Both the position numbers and the translations under genes were made by a program. A stretch of 64,000 bases of DNA, taken from NCBI GenBank assembly GCA_964621445.1, contig CAZUNO010000003.1, positions 124,664 through 188,663 of the forward strand, read 5' to 3'. Positions 7,608-35,933 of the stretch are shown here, piece by piece (the first letter of the stretch is position 1; each line of letters starts with the position of its first letter). The notes beneath the pieces are model-generated. The model searched no databases. It saw only the letters and a program-made list of their open reading frames with translations, and was not told where the DNA came from. Source of the DNA: Candidatus Hadarchaeota archaeon. GTDB taxonomy: Archaea; CAYQAE01; CAYVLA01.

Positions 7608-8582
7608 TTAATAGTGATAGTAAAAACTTTTCGTCCATCTACCCCTGCAATCACATTCAAGGGCTTTTAGCTGGGAGGGGTCCTGGCTCAATGAAAAGTC
7701 CCGAACCATCTGCTTTCCCTTGCTGCTGCACTTTCGACAGTTGTGTGGGCCCCTTCTGGTCCCGAATGCTACGGTGTCGCATATCAGGTTCTTGCTGGGA
7801 TCGAGGGCATCCCGGGCGGAGCGCAAGATTCTCAAGACCGTCCAGATCCAGGGAGGTCGATAGTTACCTCTCTTATAAAGACTCTCCACCAAGGTCCCCT
7901 TCTGGACGTTGCATGCGTTTATGGAGATTGAATCCGAATACTCCGCCGATTCTTCAACGCTTTTTACCGTGTCGTAGGCCGCGTCGAATTCGCTCAGAAA
8001 TGGCGGTTTGACTAAAAGATAGGTTTTAACCCGGGCTCCCGAGTTTCTTACCACAATGGACTTTTTTCTAAATCTCTCGAATGTGAATCCCTTCCCTATG
8101 CAGTTCTTTCTGACCCAATCACTCGAAGATTCCAGGCCCATAGCCACCTCGATCTCCAGGTCAGGGAGCCCCGAGACCAGTCCAGAAACCAGGGAGGACT
8201 CTATAAATTCGGGTCTTGATTCCACGGTGAGTTCGGAAAGCCCACTGACCCCCCTTAGCTCCTGGATCAGGTAATCCCTGGCCTCCCCCCTCACCTCTCG
8301 GGTATCAAAGAAGCTACCAGAGGTGAAAATCTTGAGTCCAAATGGCCCCTTAGATGCCGGTAAGATTGCCAGCATCTCGTCCACCTGGGCCTTTAGCTCC
8401 TCTACCTCGACCTCTCGACCGCAGGTATCCGCTATATATCCACACATCGAACAGCCGCCGGTTTCACGTGCCCATCGACAACCGCCCGTATCAAGTATGG
8501 CGTAATAGATGACCCCGGGGCCGTGAAACATCCTGTCCCGTGCGGACCAGAAGCTAGGGTTGATCTCGTCCCTGGTTCTCAC
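7608..8582 (-). CDS. radical-SAM-like Cys-rich protein, possibly archaeosine-pathway RaSEA family (tentative)
   Basis: 'GGCRWARETGGCSMCGY' Cys cluster near N-terminus plus C-terminal 'CRKCS' and 'CDCRG' clusters. Family assignment is from memory of motif spacing and unverified. Confidence 0.35.
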   Translation of the reverse strand: MRTRDEINPSFWSARDRMFHGPGVIYYAILDTGGCRWARETGGCSMCGYIADTCGREVEVEELKAQVDEMLAILPASKGPFGLKIFTSGSFFDTREVRGEARDYLIQELRGVSGLSELTVESRPEFIESSLVSGLVSGLPDLEIEVAMGLESSSDWVRKNCIGKGFTFERFRKKSIVVRNSGARVKTYLLVKPPFLSEFDAAYDTVKSVEESAEYSDSISINACNVQKGTLVESLYKRGNYRPPWIWTVLRILRSARDALDPSKNLICDTVAFGTRRGPHNCRKCSSKGKQMVRDFSLSQDPSQLKALECDCRGRWTKSFYYHY

Positions 8583-8711
8583 CTCTCTAATCCTGCTGAT
8601 GCGTTCCCTGATATTACTCGACAGGTGTTTCTCCTCTGATCCGAATGGATGCGGTCCTCCAGTTCTGAAGGTGAGAGTTAAAGGAGTTATATCTTTTCAA
8701 GTAACGTACCC

Positions 8712-10001
8712 ATGCCCAGCATTTTCCACTTCGAACTCAACCGACCTTCGAGAATGGACAAGCTTCTAGGTCAAGTTATATCCTCAGCCCAGACACCAGC
8801 TTCCCTTGAAGTATCGGGTTTCGTGGGGAAGGAATCCTTCTCCGGAACCGTGGACTGCCCTTCCATCCCCCGTGGGAGATGGGGAACAGGCGCCATCCAG
8901 CTCGGCAGCCCCCTGGAAACCGGTTTTCTGTTACATGACCAGGCCGGACCTGGTGAGGGGCATGGCGATTTACCTTCCCTGGTCGAGTCCCGTGCCATCT
9001 ACGGCCCGGAATCCCCGTTATTTGGCACCTTTATCCTCAGAAGCTCCGATGGTAATTATATAGGGAGGGATGTATTGGGAACCCGTCCCCTTTTCTCCGG
9101 CAAGGGTAAGGGAACTGCATTTGGAAGTGAACCACGGGTTCTAAAAGAACTGGGATTTGGGGACATACGGAACTTTCCCCCGGGAAAGATACTTGATAGT
9201 TCGGGCAGGAGACGTGAACTGTCCTCGCAAATACAGATACCTGACCATAGATCGGTCAATCTAAAAGGGCTAATCGATAGACTCTACTGGTTTCTCGAAT
9301 CCACGCCCTCCCCCCGAGCCATCTTTTTTTCAGGAGGGATTGACAGCCTTATCCTGGCGAAGATCTCGGAGGAAACCGGGGAAACAATCCTGATCACTGC
9401 AGGGGTGCCTGGTTGTAAGGACTTCTCCGGAGCCAGAGCAGCCTCAAAAATACTCTCCAGCGACCTACAACTGGTCAAAATCGATCCGTGTGATATTCCA
9501 AATGATGTGGATGATATGGTCCCAATTATCCATGACCAGAATAAAATGAACCTGGCAATATGCCTTCCCATTTTACATGCCGCGGGGGCCTGCTCGAATC
9601 AGGGGATCGAGCATGCCATTACCGGTCAGGGTGCCGATGAACTGTTTGGAGGATATCACAAGTATCTCTCCAAACCGAAATACGAGAGATCGATGTTCAC
9701 TGACCTGTTCAACCTGCACGAGAGGGGGATGGATGCATGCGATCTAGCTTCCCGGGCGAGGGGTGTAAGGCTGTTCCTTCCCTACCTTGACCGGGAATTC
9801 ATCAAGACCACCCTCCATTTACCTCCCGGGATGAAGATAGATAATGATAAGAGAAAGGTCGCTCTCAGAAAGATAGCTAAGAAGCTAGACATTCCCCAGG
9901 CCCTTTCTTCAACCAAAAAACGGGCCATGCAGTACGGTTCAGGGGTAAACAAGTATGTGAAAAAATATCTCAGGAGGAATGGAACTGGAAAGCGACCTTG
10001 A
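8712..10001 (+). CDS. asparagine synthase-like PP-loop amidotransferase without an evident N-terminal catalytic Cys
   Basis: PP-loop 'FFSGGIDSLILA' and AsnB-type 'TGQGADELFGGYHKY'. No Cys follows the initiator Met, so glutamine hydrolysis by this chain is doubtful. Confidence 0.55.
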   Translation: MPSIFHFELNRPSRMDKLLGQVISSAQTPASLEVSGFVGKESFSGTVDCPSIPRGRWGTGAIQLGSPLETGFLLHDQAGPGEGHGDLPSLVESRAIYGPESPLFGTFILRSSDGNYIGRDVLGTRPLFSGKGKGTAFGSEPRVLKELGFGDIRNFPPGKILDSSGRRRELSSQIQIPDHRSVNLKGLIDRLYWFLESTPSPRAIFFSGGIDSLILAKISEETGETILITAGVPGCKDFSGARAASKILSSDLQLVKIDPCDIPNDVDDMVPIIHDQNKMNLAICLPILHAAGACSNQGIEHAITGQGADELFGGYHKYLSKPKYERSMFTDLFNLHERGMDACDLASRARGVRLFLPYLDREFIKTTLHLPPGMKIDNDKRKVALRKIAKKLDIPQALSSTKKRAMQYGSGVNKYVKKYLRRNGTGKRP

Positions 10002-10551
10002 CGATTCACAAAAGAAAATCCTGGCCCTGAGCCGGGAGCACGGACTTTCAGCTATACAAAGGATACTGCTTGGGCATGATGGATCAATGACCCGGCTTCT
10101 TGAACTGGCCAGCGGCCACCAGGTCTTTTTACATACCCTGAAGCAGGTGGTTATACCCTGTCCGGCCGACATATCAAAGATCCTACAGATTTCTCCTCAA
10201 GAGAGGGTTAACGAGAGAGAGATAGTAATGAAACGAGATGCTGATGACCGCCCGCTACTTCATGCCATATCCTATACACCCCTTTCAAGACTTGAAAAGA
10301 GGTTCAGGTCCGACCTCATGAAGGCCGACATCCCCATAGGACGCCTAATGCAGAGATATAACATGGAAGCGAGGAGAGAAATCACCGAGGTCGGTCTGGA
10401 GAGGGAGAATGAACGTCTATCCCATATTTTGGACTGTGAGGGCCCCTTTCTCTGGAGGTCGTACATCATATTCAAAGACGAGATACCCCTGATAACCATT
10501 CATGAATCCTTCTCGACCGATGTCATCTCCAGTGCCCGCGAAAGCACTTAA
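9979..10551 (+). CDS. chorismate pyruvate-lyase-fold protein (UbiC/DUF98-like)
   Basis: 190 aa; 'LLGHDGSMTRLLE' resembles the 'LLEDSMTKRFE' region of E. coli UbiC. Confidence 0.4.
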   Translation: MELESDLDDSQKKILALSREHGLSAIQRILLGHDGSMTRLLELASGHQVFLHTLKQVVIPCPADISKILQISPQERVNEREIVMKRDADDRPLLHAISYTPLSRLEKRFRSDLMKADIPIGRLMQRYNMEARREITEVGLERENERLSHILDCEGPFLWRSYIIFKDEIPLITIHESFSTDVISSAREST

Positions 10552-10586: not shown

Positions 10587-11270
10587 TTGGATATTGGAAG
10601 GAGAAGGGACCTCCACATGCACACCATCCTTAGCGATGGAGGTATGATCGCCTCTGAGGTCGCTCGCAGGGCCGAGAACCTCGACCACGCATTGATAGCC
10701 ATTACCGATCACGTTGACAAGTCCAATATCGATATCTGTCTCTCGGGACTACTGGACGCTTTGGCCGACATCAATTCCCTATCTGAAATATCCGTGCTGG
10801 CCGGGGTGGAAATCACCCACGTTCCACCAGCGACCATAGATGAAATCGCCAGGCAGGCCAAGTATAAAGGGGCAAATATAGTGGTCGTGCACGGCGAAAC
10901 CGTGGCCGAGCCGGTCCAGCCGGGAACCAACGCCGCGGCCGTAAACTCCCCCTATGTGGATATCCTTGCCCACCCCGGCTTGATCTCTCCCGAAGTGGCT
11001 CAAACGGCCAGGGAAAACGAGGTTTACATCGAACTGACGGCTAAGGCAGGGCACGACAAGACCAACCCGCACGTAGCCAAGGTATGCCGCGAATGCGGTG
11101 CCAAGATGGTGGTAAATACCGACCTCCATTCTCCAGATGATTTCATCTCTCAAACGGAGGCACTGGAAATTGCGCTAGCGGCGGGCCTGGACAGAAAACA
11201 AGCCATTCAAACGGTAAGGGAAAATCCCATTGAGCTATCTAGTCGTGCTGCCCTTCATTTCCGTCGATAG
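10587..11270 (+). CDS. PHP-domain metal-dependent phosphoesterase
   Basis: 'DLHMHTILSDG' and 'ITDH' His-rich PHP motifs. Confidence 0.55.
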   Translation: MDIGRRRDLHMHTILSDGGMIASEVARRAENLDHALIAITDHVDKSNIDICLSGLLDALADINSLSEISVLAGVEITHVPPATIDEIARQAKYKGANIVVVHGETVAEPVQPGTNAAAVNSPYVDILAHPGLISPEVAQTARENEVYIELTAKAGHDKTNPHVAKVCRECGAKMVVNTDLHSPDDFISQTEALEIALAAGLDRKQAIQTVRENPIELSSRAALHFRR

Positions 11271-12692: not shown

Positions 12693-13568
12693 TTGGGCCT
12701 AAACTACCGGGAGGCAGCTTTGATAGATATTAGCAATTGCCGACCTGATCCTGATTTCAACGGTAAAACCTATGAGAGAATCGCGAGAACACTAAACCTA
12801 GATACCTATGCTGATCACGAAGCCACTCAAATTCTCCATTCCCTTATGATGGGCAGGGCAGAGGAATCCAGAAATGCCTTGGACCGGCTTGAAGAACTTG
12901 TAAACTCTAGACCTGCCTTCGTATTTGGGTGTGGACCTTCCCTGGATAACCATATCGCGGGATGCATTTCCTATCTGAGATCCGCAAAGGTGGTGACAAT
13001 AGCCGCCGATGGTGCAGCATCTGCCCTCATTGACAGGGAGGTCCTGCCAGATATCGTGGTTACCGACCTGGATGGAATACCGTCCGATATTTCCCTGGCA
13101 TCAAATAGGGGAACCATAGTACTACTACATGCACATGGTGATAACCTGAACTCGGTTCGGAGATGGCTGCCAAGAATCAACAACGTTATACCTGTGACCC
13201 AGACCGAACCGACGGACCTTGTTCACAACTTCGGAGGTTTCACGGATGGAGACAAATCAGTACATGTAGCCTGCCTGTTCGGTTGCTCGGCCTTGCTGCT
13301 TGCTGGAATGGACTTTGGAAACGAGGTGGGCCGATGGTCGTCTCCACAAGGCCCTCATGATGACCTTGGAATGAAACTGAAAAAGCTGGAAATTGGTAGT
13401 GAACTAACAGCCAGATGCATATCAGAATGTGGTGCACCTGTGTATTCACTCCCACCCAGCCCATTCGACTGGGTTCCTGAAATTGAGTGCCAGAGACTTC
13501 CCAAAATTTTGGGCGCTAGGAGAACGAGAGATGAAAGACAAGATGCTAATCGAAAAAATGATGCCTGA
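12693..13568 (+). CDS. mptE: 6-hydroxymethylpterin diphosphokinase MptE-like (DUF115)
   Basis: 'FVFGCGPSLD' and 'IVVTDLDG' DUF115 motifs; first gene of a pterin cluster. Confidence 0.5.
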   Translation: MGLNYREAALIDISNCRPDPDFNGKTYERIARTLNLDTYADHEATQILHSLMMGRAEESRNALDRLEELVNSRPAFVFGCGPSLDNHIAGCISYLRSAKVVTIAADGAASALIDREVLPDIVVTDLDGIPSDISLASNRGTIVLLHAHGDNLNSVRRWLPRINNVIPVTQTEPTDLVHNFGGFTDGDKSVHVACLFGCSALLLAGMDFGNEVGRWSSPQGPHDDLGMKLKKLEIGSELTARCISECGAPVYSLPPSPFDWVPEIECQRLPKILGARRTRDERQDANRKNDA

Positions 13569-14175
13569 AGGTTCGTTACAGGAGCTAATCCTGGTCTCAA
13601 TATCACAGGCTGGGAAAACCAACCTAGCACCAATAGGCGTTTGGAGCGATGATAAAGGGCTCTTGGCAAGGATTGGCCGCGAAACCCAGAGCATGCGTAA
13701 CTTGCTCAGCCGTCCTCAAGCCCGTTTTTGTGTGACCCTGAACCCGCTATTGATAGCCAAATCGGCGTTTAATCTTGATTGCCATGAATTTATCCTGGAT
13801 GATAGCAGAGGACTCCCCCAGATATCCGGTTCCGAAGCCGATATTCTGGTGGAGATGAAGAGCCATAGGGATTTCGTGAAGAGGGACCTGCTTGGGAATT
13901 CGCCCTTTGTAGAGGTGCTCTTCGAGGTAAAGGAGGTCAAGGTAAAAGGATTGCCTCGTCCCCCATCTCGTTCTCTTTGTGCGACCATCGACTCCATCAT
14001 AGGAATAACTAGGGCTAGGCTGGCTCTTGAAAGGGAACTGGAAATATATGAACAGCTGGCTAGGCAGGTAAGAGAAAATATTTCAAAAGCAAGGAGGTTA
14101 GGAACAAACCAGGAAGAGGAGGAGGCCCTCCAGCTGTGCGAGGAAGAGCTGAAAGATATGACTAGAGAGGAGTGA
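13531..14175 (+). CDS. hypothetical protein, possibly DUF447-like split-barrel flavoprotein associated with methanopterin clusters
   Basis: Track ORF starts at 13429 inside the previous gene; in-frame ATG at 13531 ('MKDKMLIEKMM') gives a compact junction. Family assignment weak. Confidence 0.3.
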   Translation: MKDKMLIEKMMPEGSLQELILVSISQAGKTNLAPIGVWSDDKGLLARIGRETQSMRNLLSRPQARFCVTLNPLLIAKSAFNLDCHEFILDDSRGLPQISGSEADILVEMKSHRDFVKRDLLGNSPFVEVLFEVKEVKVKGLPRPPSRSLCATIDSIIGITRARLALERELEIYEQLARQVRENISKARRLGTNQEEEEALQLCEEELKDMTREE

Positions 14176-15737
14176 GCATGAACATGCTCACTGATGAGGG
14201 GGGGAAACCGCTCATAATAACCGGAAGGATCTGCTATCCAAGTATAAGTAAACTCACGCGCGAATTTGAAATCTCCATTTATGAGGTACCGATCGACGTC
14301 GCGGCCTTACTCACGGCAAATGATGTCATCGATGCCATGAAGGATATTGACCTGGAGGAGATAAGCTACGTCATGCTACCGGGTATGTTCAGAGGAGACA
14401 TAGACGCCCTCCAGGAGCGCTTTCAGATACCGTTCTTTCTAGGTCCTACTAACTTCGTTGATATACCTCTAGTAGTAAGCGAAACCTCGATCGCCGAGCT
14501 ATCAAAGACGGTCCCCGCCGATAGGCAAATAGCAGACCATAAGCGGAAAGAGGTTCTTGGCTTCTACAGAGATGCACGCCGCAGGGAAAACCAATGGCAA
14601 GGGGAACCTCTCATTATTGGTCATGATGATAATGGGGTATCCATAGGGAGAGGGTGCCCACCTGCACTGGTTGCCGAGGTCGTTGATGCACCAAGGAAGG
14701 ATGTCAAGGACATCCTAAAGGAATGCAGGCACTACCTTGAATCCGGAGCAGATATCATAGATATGGGGATGATTCCTCGGGAGGATAACTCGAAATGGAT
14801 CACATCAACAATACCCGAGATTAAGGCCGAAATCCAGGCGGCCATCAGTATAGACACAATGTCAGAGAAAGAGATCTTGGCTGCGAACGATCACCAAGCG
14901 GATCTTATTCTAAGTATCTGTGGAAGCACCATTGATTTAGTCCCCAGCATCGACCTGCCCTTTGTGCTAGTTCCCGTTGATGATCCCCAAAGCAAACCCC
15001 CTGATTCCAGCCAAGCCAGAGTAGAGAAGCTAAAATCCTACCTAAAACTCATCGGTAACCGGAATGTAATCCTTGACCCTTTACTGGCACCAATAGGAAC
15101 TGGATTCTATTCATCCATTAAATCGTATTTAAAACTGGAGGAGGAACTCCCGAAATTTCCATCATTAATGGGGATAGGAAATGTTACCGAATTAATCGAT
15201 GTTGATTCCATTGGCATCAACGCAGTGCTCGCTGCTTTGGCGCTCAAGGCAAACACGTCATTGATCTTAACAACGGAAAACAGCCAAAAATGTAGAAACT
15301 CGTTATCGGAGCTCAGCACAGCTTTAGCGATGATCTATTACTCACAACAGAAAAAAATAGTCCCAAAAAACATGGGCCTTAACCTCCTTCGCTACAAGGA
15401 AAAGAGGAAAAGGATTGATCCCACACCTCTAGCAAAACCTGAAATCAAGGCAGGAAAAGGAAAGCAAAAAACGGATATTGATAGGAATATAAAGTTCCAC
15501 ATTTTACTAAGGAACAAAAGAATTCATGTACTGAGGGAGGGAGAGGGAGATAAGATCCATCTTTCGGGGAATTCCGCCATGGACATCTGCTTTGAGCTGG
15601 ATAGGCAAGAACTATTGCCGGGACCAGCCCATTCCGTGTATTTAGGAAGGGAGCTGGCAAAGGCAGAGACCGCGCTAAAGACCGGCCGTAGCTACATCCA
15701 GGACCAGAACCTATTCACTGAGGTTGATGAGTCTTGA
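14172..15737 (+). CDS. mptH: dihydropteroate synthase-like pterin-binding protein with C-terminal extra domain (MptH-like)
   Basis: Pterin-binding TIM-barrel features ('GADIIDMG', 'ISIDT'); C-terminal 'GDKIHLSGNSAMDICFELDRQ' resembles the extension in archaeal DHPS-like proteins. Confidence 0.5.
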   Translation: MSMNMLTDEGGKPLIITGRICYPSISKLTREFEISIYEVPIDVAALLTANDVIDAMKDIDLEEISYVMLPGMFRGDIDALQERFQIPFFLGPTNFVDIPLVVSETSIAELSKTVPADRQIADHKRKEVLGFYRDARRRENQWQGEPLIIGHDDNGVSIGRGCPPALVAEVVDAPRKDVKDILKECRHYLESGADIIDMGMIPREDNSKWITSTIPEIKAEIQAAISIDTMSEKEILAANDHQADLILSICGSTIDLVPSIDLPFVLVPVDDPQSKPPDSSQARVEKLKSYLKLIGNRNVILDPLLAPIGTGFYSSIKSYLKLEEELPKFPSLMGIGNVTELIDVDSIGINAVLAALALKANTSLILTTENSQKCRNSLSELSTALAMIYYSQQKKIVPKNMGLNLLRYKEKRKRIDPTPLAKPEIKAGKGKQKTDIDRNIKFHILLRNKRIHVLREGEGDKIHLSGNSAMDICFELDRQELLPGPAHSVYLGRELAKAETALKTGRSYIQDQNLFTEVDES

Positions 15738-16729
15738 AAACTGGAGTTCGGGTTAAAACCGGTCCAAGACTCCATTTCGGCTTGTTAGACCTATCCGGTG
15801 ACATGGGCAGGGTGGACGGTGGAATCGGCATGGCCCTTCAGGAACCTTCTCTGGTCATCCAGGGTAGGAGATCGAGTTCCACGAAAAGCAACAAGTTCTC
15901 TAAACTGGTTGAGTATGCGGTTGACGCTCTAAACAAGCATTATGATAAAAATTACAGCCTCGATATCCAGGTAGATCGATCTTACCCCCAGCACGTGGGA
16001 CTGGGATCCACCACCCAGATCCTCCTCTCAATCTCATACATCTACAACTTAATTTTCGGACGAACACATAACTCGCGAGAAATGGCCAATTTGCTAGGGC
16101 GAGGTGGAACATCCGGGATTGGGGTAGCATCCTTTCGATCAGGAGGCTTCATACTTGATGCAGGTCATACCTTTGGTCATAACGGTGAAAAGAATACATT
16201 CCTGCCGTCGAGGGTTTCTAATTGTCCTCCTGCACCCGTTCTCTTTAGGCATCGCATTGCATCTGACTGGGTCGTTGATCTACTCGTACCCCTTGATTCC
16301 CCAGGCCTCTCCGGTAGACCTGAAGCCGAATTCTTTCAGAAAAAATGCCCAATTCCTCGGCCAGAAACCGATAGGATATCTAGAATAGTATTATCAATTA
16401 TCCTTCCAAGCGTTATTTCATCTGATATTAAACGCTTTTCTAAAGGCATTAACCTACTTACAACGTTGGGATTCAAGTATCTAGAGATACAAAACCAATC
16501 TGAATACGTAAGGAATCTAATTTCCGATATTAAACTGGTTACTAAAAATCAAGCAGCAGTTGGTTTAAGTTCATTTGGTCCAACCGTTTTTGTTATAAGT
16601 AAAAATAATTTAAGAATGAAATTCATTGATAAATTAAAGGATCACATATCGTATATACAATCACAACATGGAGTTACTTACTACGTAACAAGGTGTAGAA
16701 ATATTGGGGCTACTGTAAATGTATGGTAG
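15734..16729 (+). CDS. mptG: beta-ribofuranosylaminobenzene 5'-phosphate synthase-like (GHMP kinase fold)
   Basis: N-terminal 'RLHFGLLDL' and GHMP 'GLGSTT' motif. The last 350 nt are markedly AT-rich relative to the rest of the gene. Confidence 0.55.
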   Translation: MKTGVRVKTGPRLHFGLLDLSGDMGRVDGGIGMALQEPSLVIQGRRSSSTKSNKFSKLVEYAVDALNKHYDKNYSLDIQVDRSYPQHVGLGSTTQILLSISYIYNLIFGRTHNSREMANLLGRGGTSGIGVASFRSGGFILDAGHTFGHNGEKNTFLPSRVSNCPPAPVLFRHRIASDWVVDLLVPLDSPGLSGRPEAEFFQKKCPIPRPETDRISRIVLSIILPSVISSDIKRFSKGINLLTTLGFKYLEIQNQSEYVRNLISDIKLVTKNQAAVGLSSFGPTVFVISKNNLRMKFIDKLKDHISYIQSQHGVTYYVTRCRNIGATVNVW

Positions 16730-16917
16730 TTATCTTCATTGTTTGATTGTTTGACAAAGGAAACAGAACAACCTGAAAGAGGGGTACTATTGAGTTTTGT
16801 TTGATCGTTTGAATGATTATAGTTGTAGCTCCGATGGATATCTTGGAAAAGAGCATTTTCCCACCTGGTTTAGTTTTTTGTTTGTGTATGTTTGTTCAAA
16901 TGTTCAAATGGATTGGG

Positions 16918-18018
16918 TTATCCCTTTTTGAAGGCTCTGGTAATATCTTTGGAGAGAGTGTACTTGTTTTTTCTCCCGACTTTTTCCACTTGAACTGCTC
17001 CCATGTTACGTAACCTGTTTAGTTGGGTGTTTATGCTACCGTAGTTGTCAACGTCGAGTTCATCTAGCACATCCTTTATGAAGGCACCGTCGGGATAGTC
17101 AACAAGGGCCTGGATTATCTCACTTTGTTGTGGTGAGTATCTTTCTAGGATCTGTTCTCTCATTGGGCCCGTGTCCTTCTTCTTTCCTAGGTAATCAGCG
17201 ACCAGATCGGCATCTATAACATCTTTCCCTGACCTAATAGTCTGGAAGACTAATTGAGCTGCTATGGTTAGAGTATCCCTGGGTACCCCGTTTGAGTGTG
17301 CATGGATCTGTTCTATCGCCTCGTCTGTGAAGGGAAGGCCATCCTCTACTTCCTTCTCACCCCTGGCCCATGCTATTCTCCTGTAGATAAGTTCCTTTGT
17401 TTCTTCTAGGTCGAATGCCTCGAGGTAGATACGCATCTTTATTCGATCCTCGAGCGGAGGAACTTTCTTCCTGATGGTGTCTAGAGCATCTTCAGTTCCC
17501 GCGAACACTATGGACCCGCCGGCATCGTGTAGGGTTCTCACCCATCGGGCAGCTGGTTCGGATATTTCCTGGAATTCGTCGATTAAGATAACGATGTTTT
17601 CTTGTTGTAGGTGTTGTGTTATGTTTGTTGCAATTCTGTCTAGCTCTAGGGCCCTGTTTCTGGAAAAGATGGAGGATAGTCTTTCCAGGATGGAGGGTGA
17701 GTGAACGTTTTGATGTATGTGCCGGAGCATTTCGTCGTGGGTAAGGGGTTTTTCTATTAGGATTACCTTTCCGCCATTTTCCTTGCGAAGCATGTAGTGA
17801 AGCTTCTTTAGAAATGCGCTTTTACCATATCCTATGGGGGAAAGAATGGATACCATGCCCTGGTTATGTTGAAGCATGAAGGTTGCTTGGTTAAGTTCCT
17901 CTTCGTATCTGGGAACATAAACGAATTCATTGGGTAAAGGAGTATTCAGAATAAAGGGTTCTCTTCCGTGAGTCCAGCCTTGTTTGTTATAGAACTCCTC
18001 TGTTATGTTGGTGTTCAA
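16918..18018 (-). CDS. AAA+ ATPase with C-terminal winged helix (archaeal ATPase/AAA_22-like; Orc1-like not excluded)
   Basis: Walker A 'SPIGYGKSAFL', Walker B 'ILIDEFQ', C-terminal wHTH-like 'NRLRNMGAVQVEKVGRKNKYTL'; sits in a low-GC, GT-skewed island. Confidence 0.5.
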   Translation of the reverse strand: MNTNITEEFYNKQGWTHGREPFILNTPLPNEFVYVPRYEEELNQATFMLQHNQGMVSILSPIGYGKSAFLKKLHYMLRKENGGKVILIEKPLTHDEMLRHIHQNVHSPSILERLSSIFSRNRALELDRIATNITQHLQQENIVILIDEFQEISEPAARWVRTLHDAGGSIVFAGTEDALDTIRKKVPPLEDRIKMRIYLEAFDLEETKELIYRRIAWARGEKEVEDGLPFTDEAIEQIHAHSNGVPRDTLTIAAQLVFQTIRSGKDVIDADLVADYLGKKKDTGPMREQILERYSPQQSEIIQALVDYPDGAFIKDVLDELDVDNYGSINTQLNRLRNMGAVQVEKVGRKNKYTLSKDITRAFKKG

Positions 18019-18019
18019 T

Positions 18020-18563
18020 TTCTACCACTGAGGTGCGTGCCTTAAGGATCGTCTTGTGCGGGTAAACCTAAACATCACTCTAACGTTTGCTGAACATAGA
18101 TAACGTACGGCTTCCAATAATTGATAGGCAAATCTCGTTCTAATAAAGCTTTTTGTTTTATTTGTTGGCCCATGTTTTAGTTGTTGTTGCGCTCTGATCA
18201 GAAGTTGTATGAATAGTTGGGTTTGTTGTTATTGTTGGGGTGCTTTGGTAGGCAATTTTGATAGGCCTGGATATATCCAAAAGCAGATGATAATGATTTC
18301 GTTTGGTTTGTTGGTCTATTGTGTTCCTTCCGTTATGCTTGAATGTTTGGTGGGGTTTAACTCAGAGACCGTTGTTGGTCTTGTTGGAGTTAGTTATTGC
18401 TTACGTTAGGAGTTTGTATATGTTTGTTATTGATACGTTTACCTGTTAGCTGAACCGTTTATTGATGCGGTATAGTTGTTAGGCAGGTTTGAATTTGTTT
18501 GTTTTGGTGTTATTGGCGGTGGATAATGGCTGTTTAATTTGTTGATTTGTTATTAAGCGTATG
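18020..18563 (+). other. 544-bp non-coding stretch with strong G+T skew on the plus strand and a recurring 'gttattg' motif
   Basis: Only low-complexity ORFs; base composition unlike flanking coding DNA. Confidence 0.4.
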
Positions 18564-19493
18564 TTATGCTTTAGCTCGACCTATTAAATGGCGGGAAATT
18601 GCGCCAGTTACGTCAACTCCGGATGCCCTAGCGGTTGCTTCAAATGATGGAGAAGGGTTAACTTCAAGTAGCTTATGCCCTTCGGAAGTATCAAGAATGT
18701 CTACGCCGGCAATATCTAGATTAAGTACTTCTGAAGCCTTAATAGCGTCTTCAGCCATCTCAGCGGGTATATATTGTTTATCCAGCGCCTCTGCGGTGGC
18801 ACCAAGGGATATATTATGCTTGTATATGGAGCCCTGTCGCTTTATTGCAGCGATGATTTCATTACCAACAAGCAGTATTCTAATATCATATGAGGAAGGA
18901 ATGTAGGGCTGGATCATGGCGGGTTGTTTGTTCATATGAAAGAGGGAAAGGGTGTCTCCTAAACAAACATCATCCTTAGCTAACATAACACCAATCCCAC
19001 CAGCGCTTTGAAGGGCCTTGATTACACAGGGGGAATGGATAGTTGAGTTTGTTATATGTATGTTACGTATGGGGTTTGGTGATACGAAAAAGGGAACTAT
19101 TGGTAAATCATTTTTAGATAGAATGGAGAGACAAAGATGCTTCCTGGCGCTTAGATATATGGAACGCGGATGGTTAATAACGGGGACTTGTTGAGAGGCA
19201 ATCCACATGGTCTCAAAAAAGAATTGGAAACATCTAGGACCGTATTCCTCAAGCCATGAAGATATGGGCCTTTGGAAAATTAGATCAAAGGAGGAAAATG
19301 ACATGTTTTCAACTTGGCCGTAAGCTAGGTCATTTAGGTCTGGAGAAGGGCCTGAACCGGTTTGAGGATGATTGATTAGGGAGAGCCAGGTGTCATTTGG
19401 ACTGAAAACATCAAATTCGATGCCCAGGGAATTGAATTTTGGGGCAAAAAGGGATACTTCCTTTTTGTTTTTTGGAAAGTAGGCTATCCTCAT
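18564..19493 (-). CDS. RimK-family ATP-grasp alpha-L-glutamate ligase (MptN/CofF-like)
   Basis: ATP-grasp C-terminal core ('VNPSPSFE', 'DIAGVDILD'); 309 aa is typical of RimK-type ligases; AT-rich codon usage. Confidence 0.55.
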   Translation of the reverse strand: MRIAYFPKNKKEVSLFAPKFNSLGIEFDVFSPNDTWLSLINHPQTGSGPSPDLNDLAYGQVENMSFSSFDLIFQRPISSWLEEYGPRCFQFFFETMWIASQQVPVINHPRSIYLSARKHLCLSILSKNDLPIVPFFVSPNPIRNIHITNSTIHSPCVIKALQSAGGIGVMLAKDDVCLGDTLSLFHMNKQPAMIQPYIPSSYDIRILLVGNEIIAAIKRQGSIYKHNISLGATAEALDKQYIPAEMAEDAIKASEVLNLDIAGVDILDTSEGHKLLEVNPSPSFEATARASGVDVTGAISRHLIGRAKA

Positions 19494-20085
19494 TGGAATT
19501 CCCTTTGATTTTATGTTATGACTTGTAGCATAACAAGAAGGGGGGGAAAAGTTATATGTGTTGTTATGATTAGAATAATGGAGTAAGAAAGGGGTTGGCT
19601 GATAACGGCAAGGTTAGAGATTTGGGTTAATAACAATAGGGGGTAAATGGGGAAATTACAAATAAATATTAATAAGATTGATTCCAAAAGTTATTAATCA
19701 TTTTATTCAGCATTGGAATTAGAAGCCAGAAATGCGTTCATGAAGATATGAGATGACATTAATCCTGTATCTGGGACGTTGGAGATTATCATTTGCTAAA
19801 TAAAGAAATCTAAGGGCCTGGCCTGCCGGTTACGGGCATTAATTGTAAATCATAATAAGTCTCAAAAAGGGGGGTGGAAACGGAAAAAAAGAAAGAGGCA
19901 TCTCGAAAAGGGGCAAAAGGGGGGTGCTAGTGTAACTATATATGAATTAGGGCTGCAATAAGGTTTAATTAAAAAAATGGACAGCTATGGGGGCATAAGA
20001 GGAGTAATGGGAAGCAAAAAGGGGTTTGATGGGTAATAAGATGGGTGTTAGGAGGGGGTCAAGGATGCAGGATTATTTCTAATAC
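19494..20085 (+). other. 592-bp purine-rich non-coding region with G runs
   Basis: No ORF of 60 aa or more in any frame; A+G-rich on the plus strand; lies between the ATP-grasp gene start and the mfnB-like gene end. Confidence 0.4.
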
Positions 20086-20793
20086 TCAAATTAGGGTTTC
20101 TTTGAAACGATCAACCCTATGTGCCGTTATTTTACCGTTACGCCGGTCGTTAGATTGACAGGCAGCACCTCTGATACCTATAACATCTGGTGATAATGTT
20201 TTGAGTTGTTTAGAGTGATTCAGATTTAGGGAGCCGGCCAGGGCGGAGATCATATCCATTTCCTGGAGGTGGGAGATAAATGAACAGAGTTCATCATAAG
20301 CCATGAAGTCAAACAAACATCTACCATCTTTGTTTATTGTGTCGATAAGGACCCCATCAGCTCCAGATTGGGATGCCGCCTGGAGTAGGACCAGGGGGGA
20401 AATGGACCCAACAAGTTCCCAGTCGGCGTAGCCACAGGCTATTACCTTAATCGAGGGATCGATTGATTTAACGATATCAACGGAGGGGGTGAGTAGGGCT
20501 TGGGCCTCGGATTGGGTTTTTGTACCAAAGAGACCAAGCTTAACGTAATCCGGTGAAAGATATGCCGCCCCGGCGGCTGCCAAGCTGACGGTTCCGGGAA
20601 GATTTGGGAGATCACCTATAGCACAACTGGTTTCACTTGTTCCGTTTACGGCATCGATAATCCTAGAGGCCTTCTGGGGAGTTGGGGCTCCAAGAGAGCC
20701 CTCCGCGGGATTCTTTATGTCAACAATGTCGGCGCCACCCGAGATGGCTTCTGGCACCTCTTCCTCGTCTACAACGCTGACTAGTAACCTCAT
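20086..20793 (-). CDS. mfnB: (5-formylfuran-3-yl)methyl phosphate synthase MfnB-like (DUF556)
   Basis: 'MRLLVSVVDEEEV...GGADIVDIKNPAEGSLGA' and 'DVIGIRGAAC' closely match my recollection of M. jannaschii MfnB. Confidence 0.65.
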   Translation of the reverse strand: MRLLVSVVDEEEVPEAISGGADIVDIKNPAEGSLGAPTPQKASRIIDAVNGTSETSCAIGDLPNLPGTVSLAAAGAAYLSPDYVKLGLFGTKTQSEAQALLTPSVDIVKSIDPSIKVIACGYADWELVGSISPLVLLQAASQSGADGVLIDTINKDGRCLFDFMAYDELCSFISHLQEMDMISALAGSLNLNHSKQLKTLSPDVIGIRGAACQSNDRRNGKITAHRVDRFKETLI

Positions 20794-21464
20794 GATGTGA
20801 TGGTAGAGGATTCGCTATAAATATGAGTTCCATACGTTCGGCCGTTAACCAAAAGCTGATGAATTCGTTTTGGGTGGTGACCATTTACAATCCATGCCTC
20901 AAGTCCATGTTTCCTAAGAATAATCGGGAGATATTCGTCTACCAGGGATTGACGGTGACCGGAGAGGTCCTTTGCTGTGAGGGATTTGATGATCTCTTTG
21001 GATTTTTGATTCGTCAGCCCATCAACAGATTTTAATAGAAGCAATTTGGAGTTTAGGGTATTGGCTAAATAAGCGGAGATTGTATCGGAGGTCACTTCCC
21101 AGCTTTGGGGAAGATCTGATTCCTTGATAGGCGAGTAGGGAAGAAAAATGGGGATCGGTTTGCCGGGTTCCGGCTTTGGCTGCGTCGATAGGCTAAAGTA
21201 ATTCGGCCAGCTAGATTCAATACAATAAGCGTTGAGGTGCATGGCAAGGATTGCCAGCCAGTGAGAACCTCTATTCCCAATACTGTAGTTATGCCCCAGT
21301 TTTCTGATTAGATCTGCATAGGAGCCCCCACCCGCTACAGCCGCAATATCTTTTATCTTATGGACATTCCAAAGCTCGCCGACTATTTCTTCCAGTATCT
21401 CACTTGCGTCATTTATGAGACTTCCACCGATCTTCACGACCCACATTACTTGGCCATCCTCCAT
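20790..21464 (-). CDS. amino-acid-kinase-family small-molecule kinase (MfnE-like)
   Basis: 'VVKIGGSL' N-terminal kinase motif and 'AVAGGGS'; 4-bp overlap with mfnB-like suggests co-translation. Confidence 0.45.
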   Translation of the reverse strand: MEDGQVMWVVKIGGSLINDASEILEEIVGELWNVHKIKDIAAVAGGGSYADLIRKLGHNYSIGNRGSHWLAILAMHLNAYCIESSWPNYFSLSTQPKPEPGKPIPIFLPYSPIKESDLPQSWEVTSDTISAYLANTLNSKLLLLKSVDGLTNQKSKEIIKSLTAKDLSGHRQSLVDEYLPIILRKHGLEAWIVNGHHPKRIHQLLVNGRTYGTHIYSESSTITS

Positions 21465-22582
21465 GCCTCAATCGAAAGTGAAACCGCTGGAGCTGTAGTG
21501 CAAACCTCCTTTTCCAGGCCGGCAACATCCATGTTGAGTTCCTGGTTCACGAAATTTTGGAAGGGGATAGGTGTTTTTAATCCGGTCTTTAGGGCGGCTG
21601 GTTTGGCAAGACATTCAGAGCCGCTTCCCGCGATAATACAGGGAATCTCTGTCCCGAGTTTGGCTCTGTTGAGAACAAAGCCGATGGACTTCTCCACCCT
21701 TTCAATCTGTCTATTGCGAACCGAGACGGCGATTTCTCGGATCTGGTTCCCATTAAGCTCTTGAAGGTCCGAGCACACGACTCTGGCCAGTCTTCTCATG
21801 CAGGCGGTAAGGTTTGTTCCCTTGCCATCAGCTGTAGGTCCGCCGTAATCACCTGGACCTAACAGACCGAGAATTATGTTGACATCGCCCATAGTTGCAA
21901 ATTCCTCTGAAGCGCAGGGGATTTCACTACCACCCAAATTCACCGAGTCCACTACTGTGGCTACGTTGGTCCTAGTCGAACCGGTGTATACCAGTTCCCG
22001 ATTCTTGAGTCTACCTCTGTCCGTTGGGTCATTGACAGCTGGACGTCCAGATAGGATGGGGATTATATCGGTGGTGGTTGATCCCGAATCTATTAGCAAG
22101 GACTGGGAGTGAGCTCTCCCTATCAGCAAGGATGTTGGGACCCAATTTGCTGCGGCGACTTCCAATGGGCGGGATATTGCTGTTTTGCCCTTAACCACCG
22201 ATCCCGAGTTTAGGATGATTCTGGTTTCTGGCTCCTGTTCTAGGAGACTAGAAAGAACGAATTCTACTCCCTGCTTTTTTGATTGGAAGCAATCCGCGAG
22301 CTCCGCCGTCATGGTGGCCAAGGTTAGATGTGGGACAGCCTGGTAGGGCTCCAATAGCTTCTGAACTAATTTGGGGAAAGAGCGGTAGTTCTTCCAAAAT
22401 GGATGGTAGATTGATTTTAGGTCACGGATTTCGAGCCCCTCTCCCCCATTTGAGGTTACTGCAATTTTGGTGTTTGCACCGCCAATATCTAACCCGATTG
22501 CTAGCATTTGATGTGCCTCTCTGATAGCCATTTCTTTACACGGGCAAATCGTTGAGGTATCTCCATGGAGTCCTTGGCCCAA
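21446..22582 (-). CDS. hydantoinase/ASKHA-fold protein of the H4MPT-linked C1 family (MfnF-like)
   Basis: 'LAIGLDIGGANTK' ASKHA phosphate-1 motif; the real start may be the internal M near 22528. Confidence 0.45.
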   Translation of the reverse strand: MGQGLHGDTSTICPCKEMAIREAHQMLAIGLDIGGANTKIAVTSNGGEGLEIRDLKSIYHPFWKNYRSFPKLVQKLLEPYQAVPHLTLATMTAELADCFQSKKQGVEFVLSSLLEQEPETRIILNSGSVVKGKTAISRPLEVAAANWVPTSLLIGRAHSQSLLIDSGSTTTDIIPILSGRPAVNDPTDRGRLKNRELVYTGSTRTNVATVVDSVNLGGSEIPCASEEFATMGDVNIILGLLGPGDYGGPTADGKGTNLTACMRRLARVVCSDLQELNGNQIREIAVSVRNRQIERVEKSIGFVLNRAKLGTEIPCIIAGSGSECLAKPAALKTGLKTPIPFQNFVNQELNMDVAGLEKEVCTTAPAVSLSIEAWRMAK

Positions 22583-23685
22583 ACACAGGTCAATACCTTG
22601 CTTTTTCCCTTCATATAGTAGGGACCCACAGGAAATGGTGGGGAAACTATCATCTTACTTTGAAACATCTTCTGGTGGATTGATTGGTCAAATGGGACGG
22701 TCCGGATTAAGGGTAGTATGGACCATTTTGAAAAGCCCTCAGTATCAACAGCGGTTTTCTCCCCGGTGATGATCGATGCCAATCCTTTCTGGATTATCTT
22801 TTCTATACCTATACATGATGTGGTCATCCTGGGATTTATCTCCATAAAATGAGCCTTGCCCTGACTATATACAAAGTCTAGGGTCATCAGGCCCTTAAGC
22901 TTGCTCTTTGTTACCATGGAGGAGATATCATCCCAAAGCCCACGAACGGGAAGGGGGAATGGGCTGGAACCACCCAGGTATTCAAGCTCTTGAGAAGCCT
23001 GGATGGCTTGGGTGTTAATTGCAAGAGGAATTACCTCGCTTTCCATGGCCATGAAGGTCGCACTGAGGTGGCGTCCCTGCTTGAATTCCTGAATAATGGC
23101 AGAATTCCACCCGGAGCTCCTTAATTTTGCAGCTGCGCGTCTGCAATCGCTATTGCTTCTAACTATGGTTGTGCCCTCGCATCCAGCCCCGTCAGGGGGT
23201 TTTATAACCAGGGGTAAACCCATTTTGGGGATTGCCCTGGATATTTCCTTGGTAGTAGATTCAGTGGTTAAGGTTCTGGGCACGGACAGGAAATTGCATT
23301 GCTGGTCGACTAATTCAAATGAAGAGGGCTTATTCGCCAACCGGGAAACCGTTCCCGAGGGGCAGCTCAACAATTCCGTTTCCTGCTCAATGGCACGAGT
23401 GAGCTCGAGGAGTTTTCCGCCTGATTCTGGAGCAATTATGAAAGCGGCGTCGAAGCTAGATGAAGTCTCTGGGAGCTCTTCCATTGGGTTTTCCCGGGGA
23501 AATACCAGATCATAGATCGGTAAAAAACCGGCCTCTCTCTTTAAACTCTTATTAACTGCGGCGGTAACCTCGTGACCATCCTTTTTGAAGGATTCACATA
23601 ACGTCCGGAGCATGCCGAACCCCTGTGGCAGAATGCTTCTCGGCCCGCCCTTGAGTGATGTCCATTCCGACAGGAGGAGCTTCAT
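22501..23685 (-). CDS. ATP-grasp ligase (MfnD-like, tentative)
   Basis: 394 aa; ATP-grasp core ('LPLVIKPPDGAGCEGTTIV', 'MEINPR'). Confidence 0.4.
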   Translation of the reverse strand: MKLLLSEWTSLKGGPRSILPQGFGMLRTLCESFKKDGHEVTAAVNKSLKREAGFLPIYDLVFPRENPMEELPETSSSFDAAFIIAPESGGKLLELTRAIEQETELLSCPSGTVSRLANKPSSFELVDQQCNFLSVPRTLTTESTTKEISRAIPKMGLPLVIKPPDGAGCEGTTIVRSNSDCRRAAAKLRSSGWNSAIIQEFKQGRHLSATFMAMESEVIPLAINTQAIQASQELEYLGGSSPFPLPVRGLWDDISSMVTKSKLKGLMTLDFVYSQGKAHFMEINPRMTTSCIGIEKIIQKGLASIITGEKTAVDTEGFSKWSILPLIRTVPFDQSIHQKMFQSKMIVSPPFPVGPYYMKGKSKVLTCVWAKDSMEIPQRFARVKKWLSERHIKC

Positions 23686-23734
23686 GGCTACGCATTTAAT
23701 AGCGGACTTCTTTTAAATCTGGTGAGCTGGGACC

Positions 23735-24448
23735 TTGAGAATCATTCCCGTTCTGGATATTCTTGATGGAAAAGTTGTAAGGGGTGTTGCTGGTAATCGG
23801 AAGAGGTACAAGCCGGTCACCAGTTCCATAACCGATTCAGTTCATCCGGTGCAGGTTGCCCGGGATCTCCTTGACATTCACACCTTCCGGGAAATCTACA
23901 TAGCCGACCTCGACGCTATCGAGGGCAGGCCCGACAACAGGGAGCTTGTGAAAGAAGTATCTGAATTGGGCTGCCAGGTTTACCTCGACTCCGGAATTAC
24001 GGGTCCGGGGGACATTGACCCGGATTACGAAATCAACCACCTGGTAGCTGGAACCGAGACCCTGGATTCATTGGAGGTCTTGGCAGAGATCTGTCAGATG
24101 CACCCGTCTGTAGTTTCCAGCTTGGATTACAAGGGAGATGACCTGCTTTGCCGAGAGGAAAGCCTGAAACATATGAAACCCCGAGAGCTCGTCGCCAGCG
24201 TATGCGCTGCAGGCGTTTCGGAGATCATCTACCTGGACCTGGCTCGGGTTGGAACCGGTTCCGGTGTAGTATGCGAGAGAGTTGAGATGGTCATAGAAGC
24301 GTCCGAGGTACCGGTGATCGTGGGAGGCGGGATTAGGAATGCATCCGATATTCGATCCCTTGATGAGGCTGGGGCGGATGGTGTTTTGGTTGCGAGCTGC
24401 GTTCACTCAGGTGAGTTGGATGAAGGGGACCTAGAGGGTTTGACCTGA
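23735..24448 (+). CDS. HisA/HisF-family TIM-barrel protein (paralog associated with cofactor clusters)
   Basis: 'RIIPVLDILDGKVVRGV' and C-terminal 'VIVGGGIRNASDI' phosphate-binding motifs of the HisA/HisF fold. Confidence 0.55.
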   Translation: MRIIPVLDILDGKVVRGVAGNRKRYKPVTSSITDSVHPVQVARDLLDIHTFREIYIADLDAIEGRPDNRELVKEVSELGCQVYLDSGITGPGDIDPDYEINHLVAGTETLDSLEVLAEICQMHPSVVSSLDYKGDDLLCREESLKHMKPRELVASVCAAGVSEIIYLDLARVGTGSGVVCERVEMVIEASEVPVIVGGGIRNASDIRSLDEAGADGVLVASCVHSGELDEGDLEGLT

Positions 24449-25425: not shown

Positions 25426-25479
25426 AAATATATCGCCGATGAGTAATATCTTTAGTTGGCCTAGTATTAGGATCAGACA

Positions 25480-35833: not shown

Positions 35834-35933
35834 GGGCCCGTGGTCTAGCTGGTTATGACATCGCCTTGACGTACTCCTTTTCAGGCGTTCAAAAAGGCGA
35901 AGTTCTTGGGTTCAAATCCCAACGGGCCCACCA
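35834..35933 (+). tRNA. tRNA-Val (anticodon GAC) with a 23-nt canonical intron (35872-35894) and encoded CCA
   Basis: Acceptor GGGCCCG/CGGGCCC, anticodon stem TCGCC/GGCGA, loop TTGACG-intron-A, T-arm TTGGG-TTCAAAT-CCCAA, discriminator A then CCA. Confidence 0.7.

Follow-up and report, generated by a model that had tools for sequence, protein, structure and literature searches.

A predicted RaSEA gene and a divergent asparagine-synthetase-like gene with an apparently inactive glutaminase domain in one uncultured archaeal clade

A window of 64,000 nucleotides, i.e., the whole stretch of archaeal DNA that was analysed, contains two divergent open reading frames separated by at most 129 bp. They probably represent two genes of separate function with a common intergenic region in a single archaeal lineage: an ordinary RaSEA and an asparagine-synthetase-like (AsnB-like) gene that heads an operon. 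RaSEA, in complex with ArcS, would turn preQ0-lysine at tRNA position 15 into archaeosine, and the cognate ArcS and tgtA are presumably encoded distantly in the genome, outside the 64 kb window. The AsnB-like protein would use ATP to adenylate a carboxylate and form an amide. The locus thereby contributes a further RaSEA and a further asparagine-synthetase homologue, the latter with a glutaminase domain that is probably dead. The features are as follows:

7608..8582 (-), RaSEA, predicted radical-SAM protein of archaeosine biosynthesis, 324 aa when read from GTG, the first canonical start
7647..7739 (-), C-terminal CxxC...CxC quartet C282/C285/C310/C312, from translation and invariant alignment columns
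8442..8480 (-), radical-SAM [4Fe-4S] motif Cx8Cx2C, CRWARETGGCSMC, C35/C44/C47, from translation and alignment
8583..8696 (-), sequence in frame with RaSEA and 5' of its GTG
8687..8693 (+), TATA-like box TTATATC, about 19-25 nt 5' of the AsnB-like ATG
8712..9296 (+), N-terminal domain of the AsnB-like protein, residues 1-195, vestigial Ntn (class-II) glutaminase fold, from alignment and AF2 model
9297..10001 (+), C-terminal PP-loop synthetase domain of the AsnB-like protein, PF00733, E=1.6e-28
9979..10551 (+), chorismate pyruvate-lyase-family (Rv2949c-like/DUF98) gene, PF01947, E=7.8e-28
10587..11270 (+), phosphoesterase of the PHP family, third same-strand gene, NF004981, 274 bits (cut-off 117)

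The RaSEA gene and the intergenic region

The preliminary description had proposed a divergent pair of ORFs at 7608-8582(-) and 8712-10001(+), the first encoding a RaSEA-type protein of 324 aa with a non-canonical cysteine cluster, and all of this was confirmed. Judged from its sequence, the product of the minus-strand gene is a genuine RaSEA, which forms the radical-SAM part of archaeosine synthase. The NCBIfam equivalog TIGR01210 matches the protein with 337 bits (cut-off 212.15, E=1e-100), residues 12-318 being aligned with profile positions 2-301 of 313, and homologues named RaSEA in Methanosarcinaceae and in Asgard archaea share 39-43% identity with it. The cysteines C35, C44 and C47, spaced C-x8-C-x2-C in a GC...GGCxMCG pattern, are invariant in 19 RaSEA sequences including the named RaSEAs, and the same alignment shows C282, C285, C310 and C312 to be invariant as well; this C-terminal quartet presumably constitutes a second metal or Fe-S site. 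In its end-to-end model match, its Cx8Cx2C motif and its four C-terminal cysteines the protein thus resembles the RaSEA of the Thermococcus kodakarensis ArcS-RaSEA complex, and with every invariant residue present it is an unremarkable member of its family. An account of RaSEA biochemistry and of the complex with ArcS is given in PMC11298593; the protein analysed here is predicted to have this activity and to form such a complex.

It differs from its homologues at the N-terminus, where the helix present in those proteins is missing from the translation that begins at the first canonical start. The codons of the in-frame stretch at 8583..8696(-) include no ATG, GTG or TTG, and this stretch encodes ...LSSNIRERISRIRE, which is similar to the N-terminal helix of the homologues (ELRxRIxEIR in the RaSEA alignment). 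A tblastn match obtained with an outgroup RaSEA reaches position 8603, beyond the GTG. Either the N-terminus would be shortened here or a non-canonical start codon may be used.

The TATA-like element between the two genes may act as promoter of the AsnB-like gene. It reads AAGGAGTTATATCTTTTC in the window and AAGGAATTATATCTTTTC in the orthologous locus L002, while ATATATG is found in L003, L088 and L091. The alignment of the intergenic regions of orthologous loci is poor beyond this element and no regulator site can be defined in it.

The AsnB-like protein

The gene at 8712-10001(+) is an ORF of 429 aa with an ATG start, and its motifs and profile matches place it in the archaeal asparagine-synthetase-like family as a diverged member. 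Its single Pfam family match is PF00733 (Asn_synthase), the PP-loop SGGIDS (residues 207-212, 9330-9347) and GQGADELFGGY (residues 305-315) are intact, and a sequence search of the PDB retrieved E. coli AsnB (1ct9, E=3.5e-10). The AF2 model is confident (pLDDT 87.6) apart from a low-confidence segment at residues 82-102, and its best PDB fold matches are AsnB, beta-lactam synthetase and carbapenam synthetase, with a full-length Foldseek alignment to 1ct9 (E=2e-20, TM 0.75). With E. coli AsnB and human ASNS it has in common the two-domain layout of an Ntn-type N-domain and a PP-loop synthetase domain as well as the SGGxDS and G-x-G-x-DE-x-FGGY motifs.

The gene had initially been described as encoding an AsnB/QueC-like PP-loop enzyme lacking the catalytic cysteine. 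The PP-loop, the missing cysteine and the AsnB relationship, the latter by PF00733 and the AsnB-type fold, were borne out, while the QueC relationship was not: the QueC model PF06508 gave no match at E<=10, a limit at which HMMER filters may hide very weak matches, and no QueC structure ranks among the 50 best PDB fold matches. The AsnB-like protein has membership in the PP-loop ATPase superfamily in common with QueC and GAT-QueC, and with GAT-QueC also the general layout, in which a class-II amidotransferase domain is joined to a PP-loop domain; its best family match is Asn_synthase.

The N-terminal domain is predicted, from alignment and model, to be a catalytically dead scaffold that keeps its fold. 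In class-II amidotransferases Cys2 is the N-terminal nucleophile; here the N-terminus reads MPSIF, so that MCG has become MPS, and none of the 16 clade members begins with Met-Cys. The glutaminase domain has lost about 60 residues. The HNGEIYN block is gone together with the helices after it, RDxLGxRPL is still present, and GATase_7 leaves a residual score of 12.7 bits (cut-off 25). Within the clade the identity amounts to 28% in the N-domain and to 49% in the C-domain.

Besides these losses in the glutaminase domain, the protein is set apart from AsnB by scores far under every AsnB equivalog cut-off (TIGR01536, 109.5 versus 267 bits; NF006949, 84 versus 499). In the HMMER alignment to 1ct9, moreover, SGEGSDE is replaced by TGQGADE, which puts Gln306 in place of the Glu, and TTIR is replaced by NLAI; the Glu and the TTIR stretch are what we take to be catalytic and aspartate-binding positions of AsnB.

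Two groups of proteins resemble it more specifically. Beta-lactam synthetase (1jgt) and carbapenam synthetase (1q15) show the same fold (Foldseek E about 1e-17 to 1e-18, TM 0.68-0.75) and the same logic of a retained glutaminase-dead N-domain combined with an adenylating C-domain, which is active in those enzymes and predicted here; at 15-17% identity this is an architectural resemblance and not membership, and their hosts are bacterial producers of secondary metabolites, unlike the host of this archaeal protein. The closest relatives outside the clade, with 27-35% identity, are the archaeal AsnB-like/DUF7411 proteins of Thermococcus, Methanobacteria, Bathyarchaeia and Asgard archaea, which have GQGADELFGGY, PMNLAI and AxQYGSG in common with the clade proteins. 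They keep the MCG... N-terminus and GATase_6/7, whereas the clade has lost both and shows a different, clade-specific gene context. Literature searches for MJ0815 and for DUF7411 returned nothing. A second Asn_synthase ORF in the window, at 44629-45741, was considered as a recent paralogue and rejected (26% identity over 125 aa).

As the PP-loop synthetase domain is intact, the AsnB-like protein should be able to adenylate a carboxylate and to form an amide; as the glutaminase domain appears dead, the nitrogen donor would be free ammonia or an amine, or else amide formation might be intramolecular, as it is in beta-lactam and carbapenam synthetases.

Downstream genes and the possible role of the AsnB-like protein

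The AsnB-like gene is physically coupled to overlapping downstream genes and not to RaSEA. The AsnB-like ORF runs 23 nt into the Rv2949c-like gene, which makes co-transcription of the two probable, and their order is kept in every clade locus covering it, with an overlap or a gap of no more than about 30 nt. The PHP phosphoesterase gene is likewise in collinear order wherever a clade locus extends that far, and together the three genes probably constitute a co-transcribed unit headed by the AsnB-like gene. This unit lies at the margin of a methanopterin/methanofuran/F420 biosynthesis cluster, as MptE, a DHPS-like gene, beta-RFAP synthase, MfnB/E/F-like genes and CofC are all encoded within the window. 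The one relative with a name at about 53% identity is a chorismate-lyase-family protein of a 'Halobacteriota archaeon'.

A role in small-molecule or cofactor-related amidation, and not in RNA modification, is the most likely one for the AsnB-like protein. Its link to cofactors is drawn from the neighbourhood, because the linkage between AsnB-like and Rv2949c-like genes is in turn a feature of this clade: in L099, L100, L101 and L102, related Rv2949c-like genes are without an AsnB-like neighbour. In L101 the Rv2949c-like homologue overlaps the gene of beta-RFAP synthase. Chorismate lyase, 4-hydroxybenzoate and beta-RFAP synthase may be connected, as suggested by this adjacency in L101 and, reportedly, by White (2011, Biochemistry); a literature search on a 4-hydroxybenzoate route to methanopterin gave nothing useful. 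The clade would thus represent a small, fast-evolving group of AsnB-like proteins, whose gene, located beside methanopterin/methanofuran genes, is apparently coupled in translation to one of the chorismate-lyase family, and its enzymes could catalyse an amidation in cofactor or aromatic metabolism that has so far gone unrecognised.

Alternatively, the AsnB-like protein might be the housekeeping asparagine synthetase of this lineage, ammonia-dependent after having lost the use of glutamine and fortuitously positioned. The nearest relatives outside the clade, the 27-35% identical proteins with intact GATase domains, are annotated as asparagine synthase, the PP-loop and GQGADELFGGY are conserved, and a Methanomicrobiales homologue adjoins gatC, which suggests a context of Asn/Gln metabolism. 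We consider this unlikely: the protein misses the AsnB cut-offs by far, deviates from AsnB at Gln306 and NLAI, presumably functional positions, overlaps a chorismate-lyase-family gene and is the fastest-evolving protein of its block, with 41-47% identity compared with 44-83% for most other genes.

Conservation of the pair

Both ORFs are real and not chance ORFs, given their strong family matches and orthologues with 36-66% identity on other contigs. It had been proposed that the two genes might form a variant nucleoside-modification module. The divergent pair does recur in other genomes, yet only inside one small uncultured archaeal clade. There a block of about 16 genes and about 20 kb, from PurL to beta-RFAP synthase, is collinear, and all clade loci with enough flank read DUF362-PurL-FUN14-AAkinase-(PhoU)-RaSEA on one side of the shared intergenic region and AsnBl-Rv2949c-PHP-AIRS-MptE-DUF447-DHPSlike-MptG-AAA22 on the other. 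As the whole block is collinear, the pair is not better conserved than the genes around it, and in so narrow a clade its persistence therefore carries no specific signal; it was seen only within the collinear block and never as an operon-like module outlasting an altered gene order. The pair is kept in five of five distinguishable clade lineages, even in one that has lost the PhoU gene beside RaSEA, so that a functional tie might still exist as far as synteny alone is concerned. The locus is an example of how block synteny in a narrow lineage can mimic a conserved functional pair.

Outside the clade the pairing was not found. As a negative control, 80 distant AsnB-like loci were collected by a contig profile search with the clade alignment and the general patterns ADELFGGY and KxAIQYGSG, and among the matches listed, which included no clade members, none of the 80 loci had a RaSEA within 10 kb. 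The immediate neighbours of AsnB-like genes elsewhere are lineage-specific, such as adenylosuccinate lyase, PHP and GatC, and the wider archaeal family showed neither a universal partner nor an adjacent tRNA-modification gene. RaSEA itself is found in a tgtA-arcS-RaSEA operon in L087, in a tgtA-RaSEA operon in L100 and unlinked to arcS in L086, and an AsnB-like gene is near RaSEA in none of these three loci. Unlike in L087, arcS is not adjacent to RaSEA in the window, and queries with the L087 proteins, covering the 64 kb window and the clade loci, retrieved neither arcS nor tgtA there. Since the RaSEA of L086 is likewise unlinked to arcS, its absence near the clade RaSEA genes is uninformative.

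These observations bear on the proposed module, in which the glutaminase-dead AsnB-like enzyme would work with RaSEA and might replace or supplement ArcS by attaching an amine, at the expense of ATP, to a carboxylate or nitrile 7-deazaguanine intermediate that RaSEA would then process. The short shared intergenic region, the retention of the pair in all clade lineages and the missing arcS and tgtA in the covered loci are consistent with such a module, and crenarchaeal GAT-QueC is reported to provide a precedent (Phillips et al. 2012), in that a class-II GAT and PP-loop architecture can serve archaeosine synthesis. With conservation of the pair indistinguishable from that of the whole 20 kb block, no RaSEA near the 80 AsnB-like loci outside the clade, two of the three outside RaSEA loci pairing with tgtA (one of them also with arcS) and none with an AsnB-like gene, no QueC signature in the AsnB-like protein, an entirely unremarkable RaSEA and an AsnB-like gene coupled downstream, we regard it as very unlikely. 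A related idea, plausible if complete clade genomes lack arcS, is that the AsnB-like protein was recruited within the clade as a new partner of RaSEA, opening an ArcS-independent or ArcS-supplementing route to archaeosine or to a new 7-deazaguanine derivative at position 15; we hold this to be highly improbable. The reading as two functionally separate genes is thus preferred.

That selection on the AsnB-like gene is relaxed and the gene is turning into a pseudogene, so that its pairing would be without any function, was rejected as scarcely credible: the low N-domain identity, the low-confidence model segment and the rank as most diverged protein of the block fit such a decay, but the ORF is maintained at full length throughout the clade clusters (391-437 aa), the clade alignment contains 51 invariant columns including all PP-loop and ATP-site motifs, the model is confident and the stop of the gene still overlaps the start of the downstream one.

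The divergent gene pair and the RaSEA protein

Features of the gene pair and of the genes downstream
7608-8582 (-): RaSEA, 324 aa, GTG start at 8582 (ORF listing and TIGR01210)
8583-8699 (-): in-frame stretch upstream of the RaSEA GTG, including a stop at 8697-8699 (translation and alignment)
8712-10001 (+): AsnB-like protein, 429 aa (ORF listing and PF00733)
9979-10551 (+): chorismate pyruvate-lyase-family gene (Rv2949c-like/DUF98; PF01947)
directly after the Rv2949c-like gene (+): PHP phosphoesterase (NF004981, 274 bits)

The ORF listing shows divergent ORFs of 324 aa (7608-8582, minus strand) and 429 aa (8712-10001, plus strand), and the coordinates agree exactly with the preliminary description. 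That description likened the Cys-rich 324-aa protein, with its non-canonical N-terminal Cys cluster, to RaSEA-type enzymes, which is borne out: by sequence criteria the protein is RaSEA, as it matches nearly the entire RaSEA equivalog of NCBIfam (TIGR01210, an archaeosine biosynthesis radical SAM model) with 337 bits where 212 is the cut-off, and its translation contains CRWARETGGCSMC, i.e., C35-x8-C44-x2-C47, as well as a C-terminal CxxC...CxC. These seven Cys are invariant in a 19-sequence alignment, and Pfam returned no match for the protein. The database search yielded >2,000 RaSEA homologues, of which a private clade is nearest (52-66% identity), followed by named RaSEAs from Methanosarcinaceae, Methanoperedens, Thor-, Hod- and Freyarchaeota (39-43%). 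RaSEA is found in complex with ArcS, which attaches lysine to preQ0 at tRNA position 15, RaSEA then converting preQ0-Lys to archaeosine; the arcS and RaSEA pair occurs in 196 euryarchaeal species (PMC11298593).

Upstream of the GTG the same frame encodes ...NIRERISRIRE, a helix that looks conserved because homologues in the alignment begin in a similar way, and a codon check found no ATG, GTG or TTG between this GTG and the upstream stop. The sequence suggests either that a non-canonical start is used or that the N-terminus was shortened, perhaps recently; P0122, the closest relative, is shortened too.

The AsnB-like protein

The 429-aa protein had been described as an AsnB/QueC-like PP-loop amidotransferase without the catalytic Cys. 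The PP-loop (SGGIDS, residues 207-212), the likeness to AsnB and the missing nucleophile hold, as the N-terminus reads MPSIF and lacks Cys2. Asn_synthase (PF00733, E=1.6e-28, residues 201 onward) is the sole Pfam match at the standard threshold; at E<=10 only DUF7411 (15.5 bits) and a GATase_7 remnant (12.7 bits, residues 115-145) are added. The QueC-like part falls, and an identity as QueC or GAT-QueC is not supported, since no QueC match appeared at E<=10. NCBIfam AsnB models scored far under their cut-offs (109.5 vs 267).

Homologues from the database search fall into two tiers: 15 clusters of 391-437 aa with 36-47% identity, carrying PF00733, joined in some by DUF7411, and lacking any GATase domain, and a large archaeal family with approximately 27-35% identity, GATase_6/7 and often DUF7411, found in Thermococcus, Pyrococcus, Methanobacteria, Bathyarchaeia and Asgard archaea. 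In a joint alignment of this family with the proteins of the small archaeal clade that shares the gene pair (the window clade), the MCG start of the second tier is replaced by MPS, MPC or MTT, and the HNGEIYN block and subsequent helices are missing, while RDxLGxRPL and the whole synthetase domain with FSGGIDS, GQGADELFGGY, RK..LR and KxAxQYGSG are retained. Identity within the window clade is 28% in the N-domain and 49% in the C-domain. The protein thus belongs to the AsnB superfamily but not to AsnB proper, because nucleophile, GATase domain and equivalog score all fail.

A confident AlphaFold2 model (pLDDT 87.6, pTM 0.88, poor only at residues 82-102) matched E. coli AsnB (1ct9) over its full length in a Foldseek search of the PDB (E=2e-20, TM 0.75), followed by beta-lactam synthetase, human ASNS, carbapenam synthetase and TsnB9. 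In the HMMER alignment the protein has Gln where 1ct9 has the Glu of SGEGSDE, and NLAI in place of the TTIR stretch; both changes are common to the whole archaeal family. It is doubtful that aspartate is the substrate, because these positions, which we take to be the catalytic and aspartate-binding positions of AsnB, are replaced. We consider it unlikely that the protein is an ammonia-dependent asparagine synthetase and nothing more. Beta-lactam and carbapenam synthetases are known AsnB homologues that keep an inactive N-domain, and the AsnB-like protein resembles this class in architecture; it would thus work like them, as an ATP-dependent carboxylate-adenylating amide former unable to use glutamine. 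Both proteins of the pair belong to known kinds, and the AsnB-like clade is small and fast-evolving.

Conservation of the gene pair

Contexts within the window clade were collected by exact-protein look-up and a clade-specific metagenome scan, followed by tblastn. Gene order and orientation are identical over approximately 20 kb in every clade locus with enough flank: DUF362, PurL (large), FUN14, amino-acid-kinase-like, PhoU/AbrB, RaSEA (-), AsnB-like (+), Rv2949c-like, PHP, AIR-synthase-like (-), MptE, DUF447, DHPS-like, beta-RFAP synthase, AAA_22 ATPase and RimK-like. Approximately five lineages are distinguishable (the window; L002/L089; L003/L090/L095; L091/L092; L088/L094/L096), one of which lacks PhoU in an otherwise unaltered block. 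The pair is thus conserved, yet not more than the PurL-FUN14 adjacency.

Outside the clade, 80 distant AsnB-like loci were listed, one genome per species (approximately 54 archaeal, the others bacterial), and none had a window-type RaSEA, Rv2949c-like or PHP homologue within 10 kb (tblastn E<=1e-5). Neighbours in the wider archaeal family are lineage-restricted (L006-L072): adenylosuccinate lyase occurs at five loci of Bathyarchaeia and at one of Methanoculleus, five Halobacteria have PHP+PHP_C upstream, and three Methanomicrobiales have gatC downstream; no tRNA-modification gene is among the immediate neighbours. In Methanomicrobia the match is limited to the synthetase domain. Among outgroup RaSEA loci, L087 carries a tgtA-arcS-RaSEA operon (RaSEA 47% identity), L100 (GCA_025464275.1) a tgtA-RaSEA operon without an AsnB-like gene, and L086 neither tgtA/arcS nor an AsnB-like gene. 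A functional pair would be expected to persist where its surroundings differ; at the loci compared, RaSEA and the AsnB-like gene occur together only in the collinear clade and therefore do not show such persistence.

The expectation that the pairing is conserved in other genomes hence holds for the clade lineages but not for the loci compared outside them. The proposed variant nucleoside-modification module is not supported, and we rate a true RaSEA/AsnB-like module as very improbable. We consider it likely instead that a canonical RaSEA, which would act with an ArcS encoded elsewhere in the genome, has as its neighbour an AsnB-family amide ligase, glutaminase-dead and unrelated to RaSEA, which would head its own three-gene unit, their adjacency being inherited as block synteny. 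A search for arcS and tgtA in the window and in the clade loci, with flanks of at most 10 kb, found neither gene.

At L100 (8001-11736), the tgtA-RaSEA operon and a 50%-identical Rv2949c-like gene are divergent with one gene (endonuclease III) between them, so that a second lineage also has RaSEA close to an Rv2949c-like gene.

Downstream genes and further features of the window

The AsnB-like stop at 10001 lies 23 nt into the Rv2949c-like gene, and overlap or near-abutment is maintained across the clade. A TATA-like TTATATC approximately 19-25 nt upstream of the AsnB-like ATG recurs in orthologous intergenic regions. That the AsnB-like gene is decaying is the least credible reading. The block runs on into a dense cofactor-biosynthesis cluster (12693-26160), which is laid out much like the 'archaeal-like' C1-cofactor islands known from methylotrophs.

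Genes of the cluster 12693-26160, with the groups in order
Methanopterin: MptE, DUF447, DHPS-like TIGR00284, beta-RFAP synthase, RimK/MptN-like
Methanofuran: MfnB, MfnE, MfnF-like/TIGR03123, ATP-grasp distantly MfnD-like
Then: HisA/HisF relative (TIGR00734); CofC for F420

A chorismate lyase would supply 4-hydroxybenzoate, which methanogen beta-RFAP synthase can reportedly use (White, in 2011), a use not found in our literature search. A role of the chorismate-lyase family in supplying the aryl precursor of methanopterin is suggested because at L101 (8001-9454) the Rv2949c-like homologue overlaps a beta-RFAP-synthase (GHMP) gene, and because many such homologues bear the JGI label 'beta-RFAP synthase'. 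The nearest named protein, a chorismate-lyase-family member, comes from a MAG labelled 'Halobacteriota archaeon'. A part of the AsnB-like enzyme in cofactor synthesis is a guess from its neighbourhood, because its linkage to the Rv2949c-like gene is clade-specific and missing in L099-L102.

Within the block, an AIR-synthase-superfamily protein (PF00586/PF02769; 11239-12612, minus strand), convergent with the PHP gene, stays under every NCBIfam cut-off (best ThiL, 69 bits) and shows 59-62% identity throughout. GC content is 0.40-0.43 at 16000-20000 vs approximately 0.52 elsewhere in the window; an AAA_22/STAND-like ATPase with a winged-helix domain at its C-terminus is encoded there (16918-18018) and, at 83% identity to L002, is conserved better than any other protein of the block.

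The source is archaeal, as shown by RaSEA, an arCOG04150 PUA protein, an intron-containing tRNA and the H4MPT, MFR and F420 biosynthesis genes. The tRNA is as follows:
35834-35930 (+): tRNA (Rfam 55.8 bits; not called by ARAGORN)
Judged by eye, this is a tRNA-Val(GAC) in which an intron of approximately 26 nt follows position 37, and it carries A14-G15, G15 being the archaeosine site.

A second Asn_synthase ORF (44629-45741, plus strand, 370 aa; PF00733 E=4e-33, weak DUF7411) has no N-terminal glutaminase domain whatever, shares only 26% identity with the AsnB-like protein across 125 aa and lies near beta-helix/GH141-like and glycosyltransferase genes. A 3045-aa ORF (46875-56012, minus strand) with Peptidase_C25, BACON, FG-GAP, Big_7 and InlB-B-repeat-like domains presumably encodes a giant surface protease or adhesin. 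It is flanked, one on each side, by ORFs of approximately 410-420 aa (36293-37561, minus strand, and 57580-58815, plus strand) with weak GATase1_like (PF07090) matches near the family cut-off.
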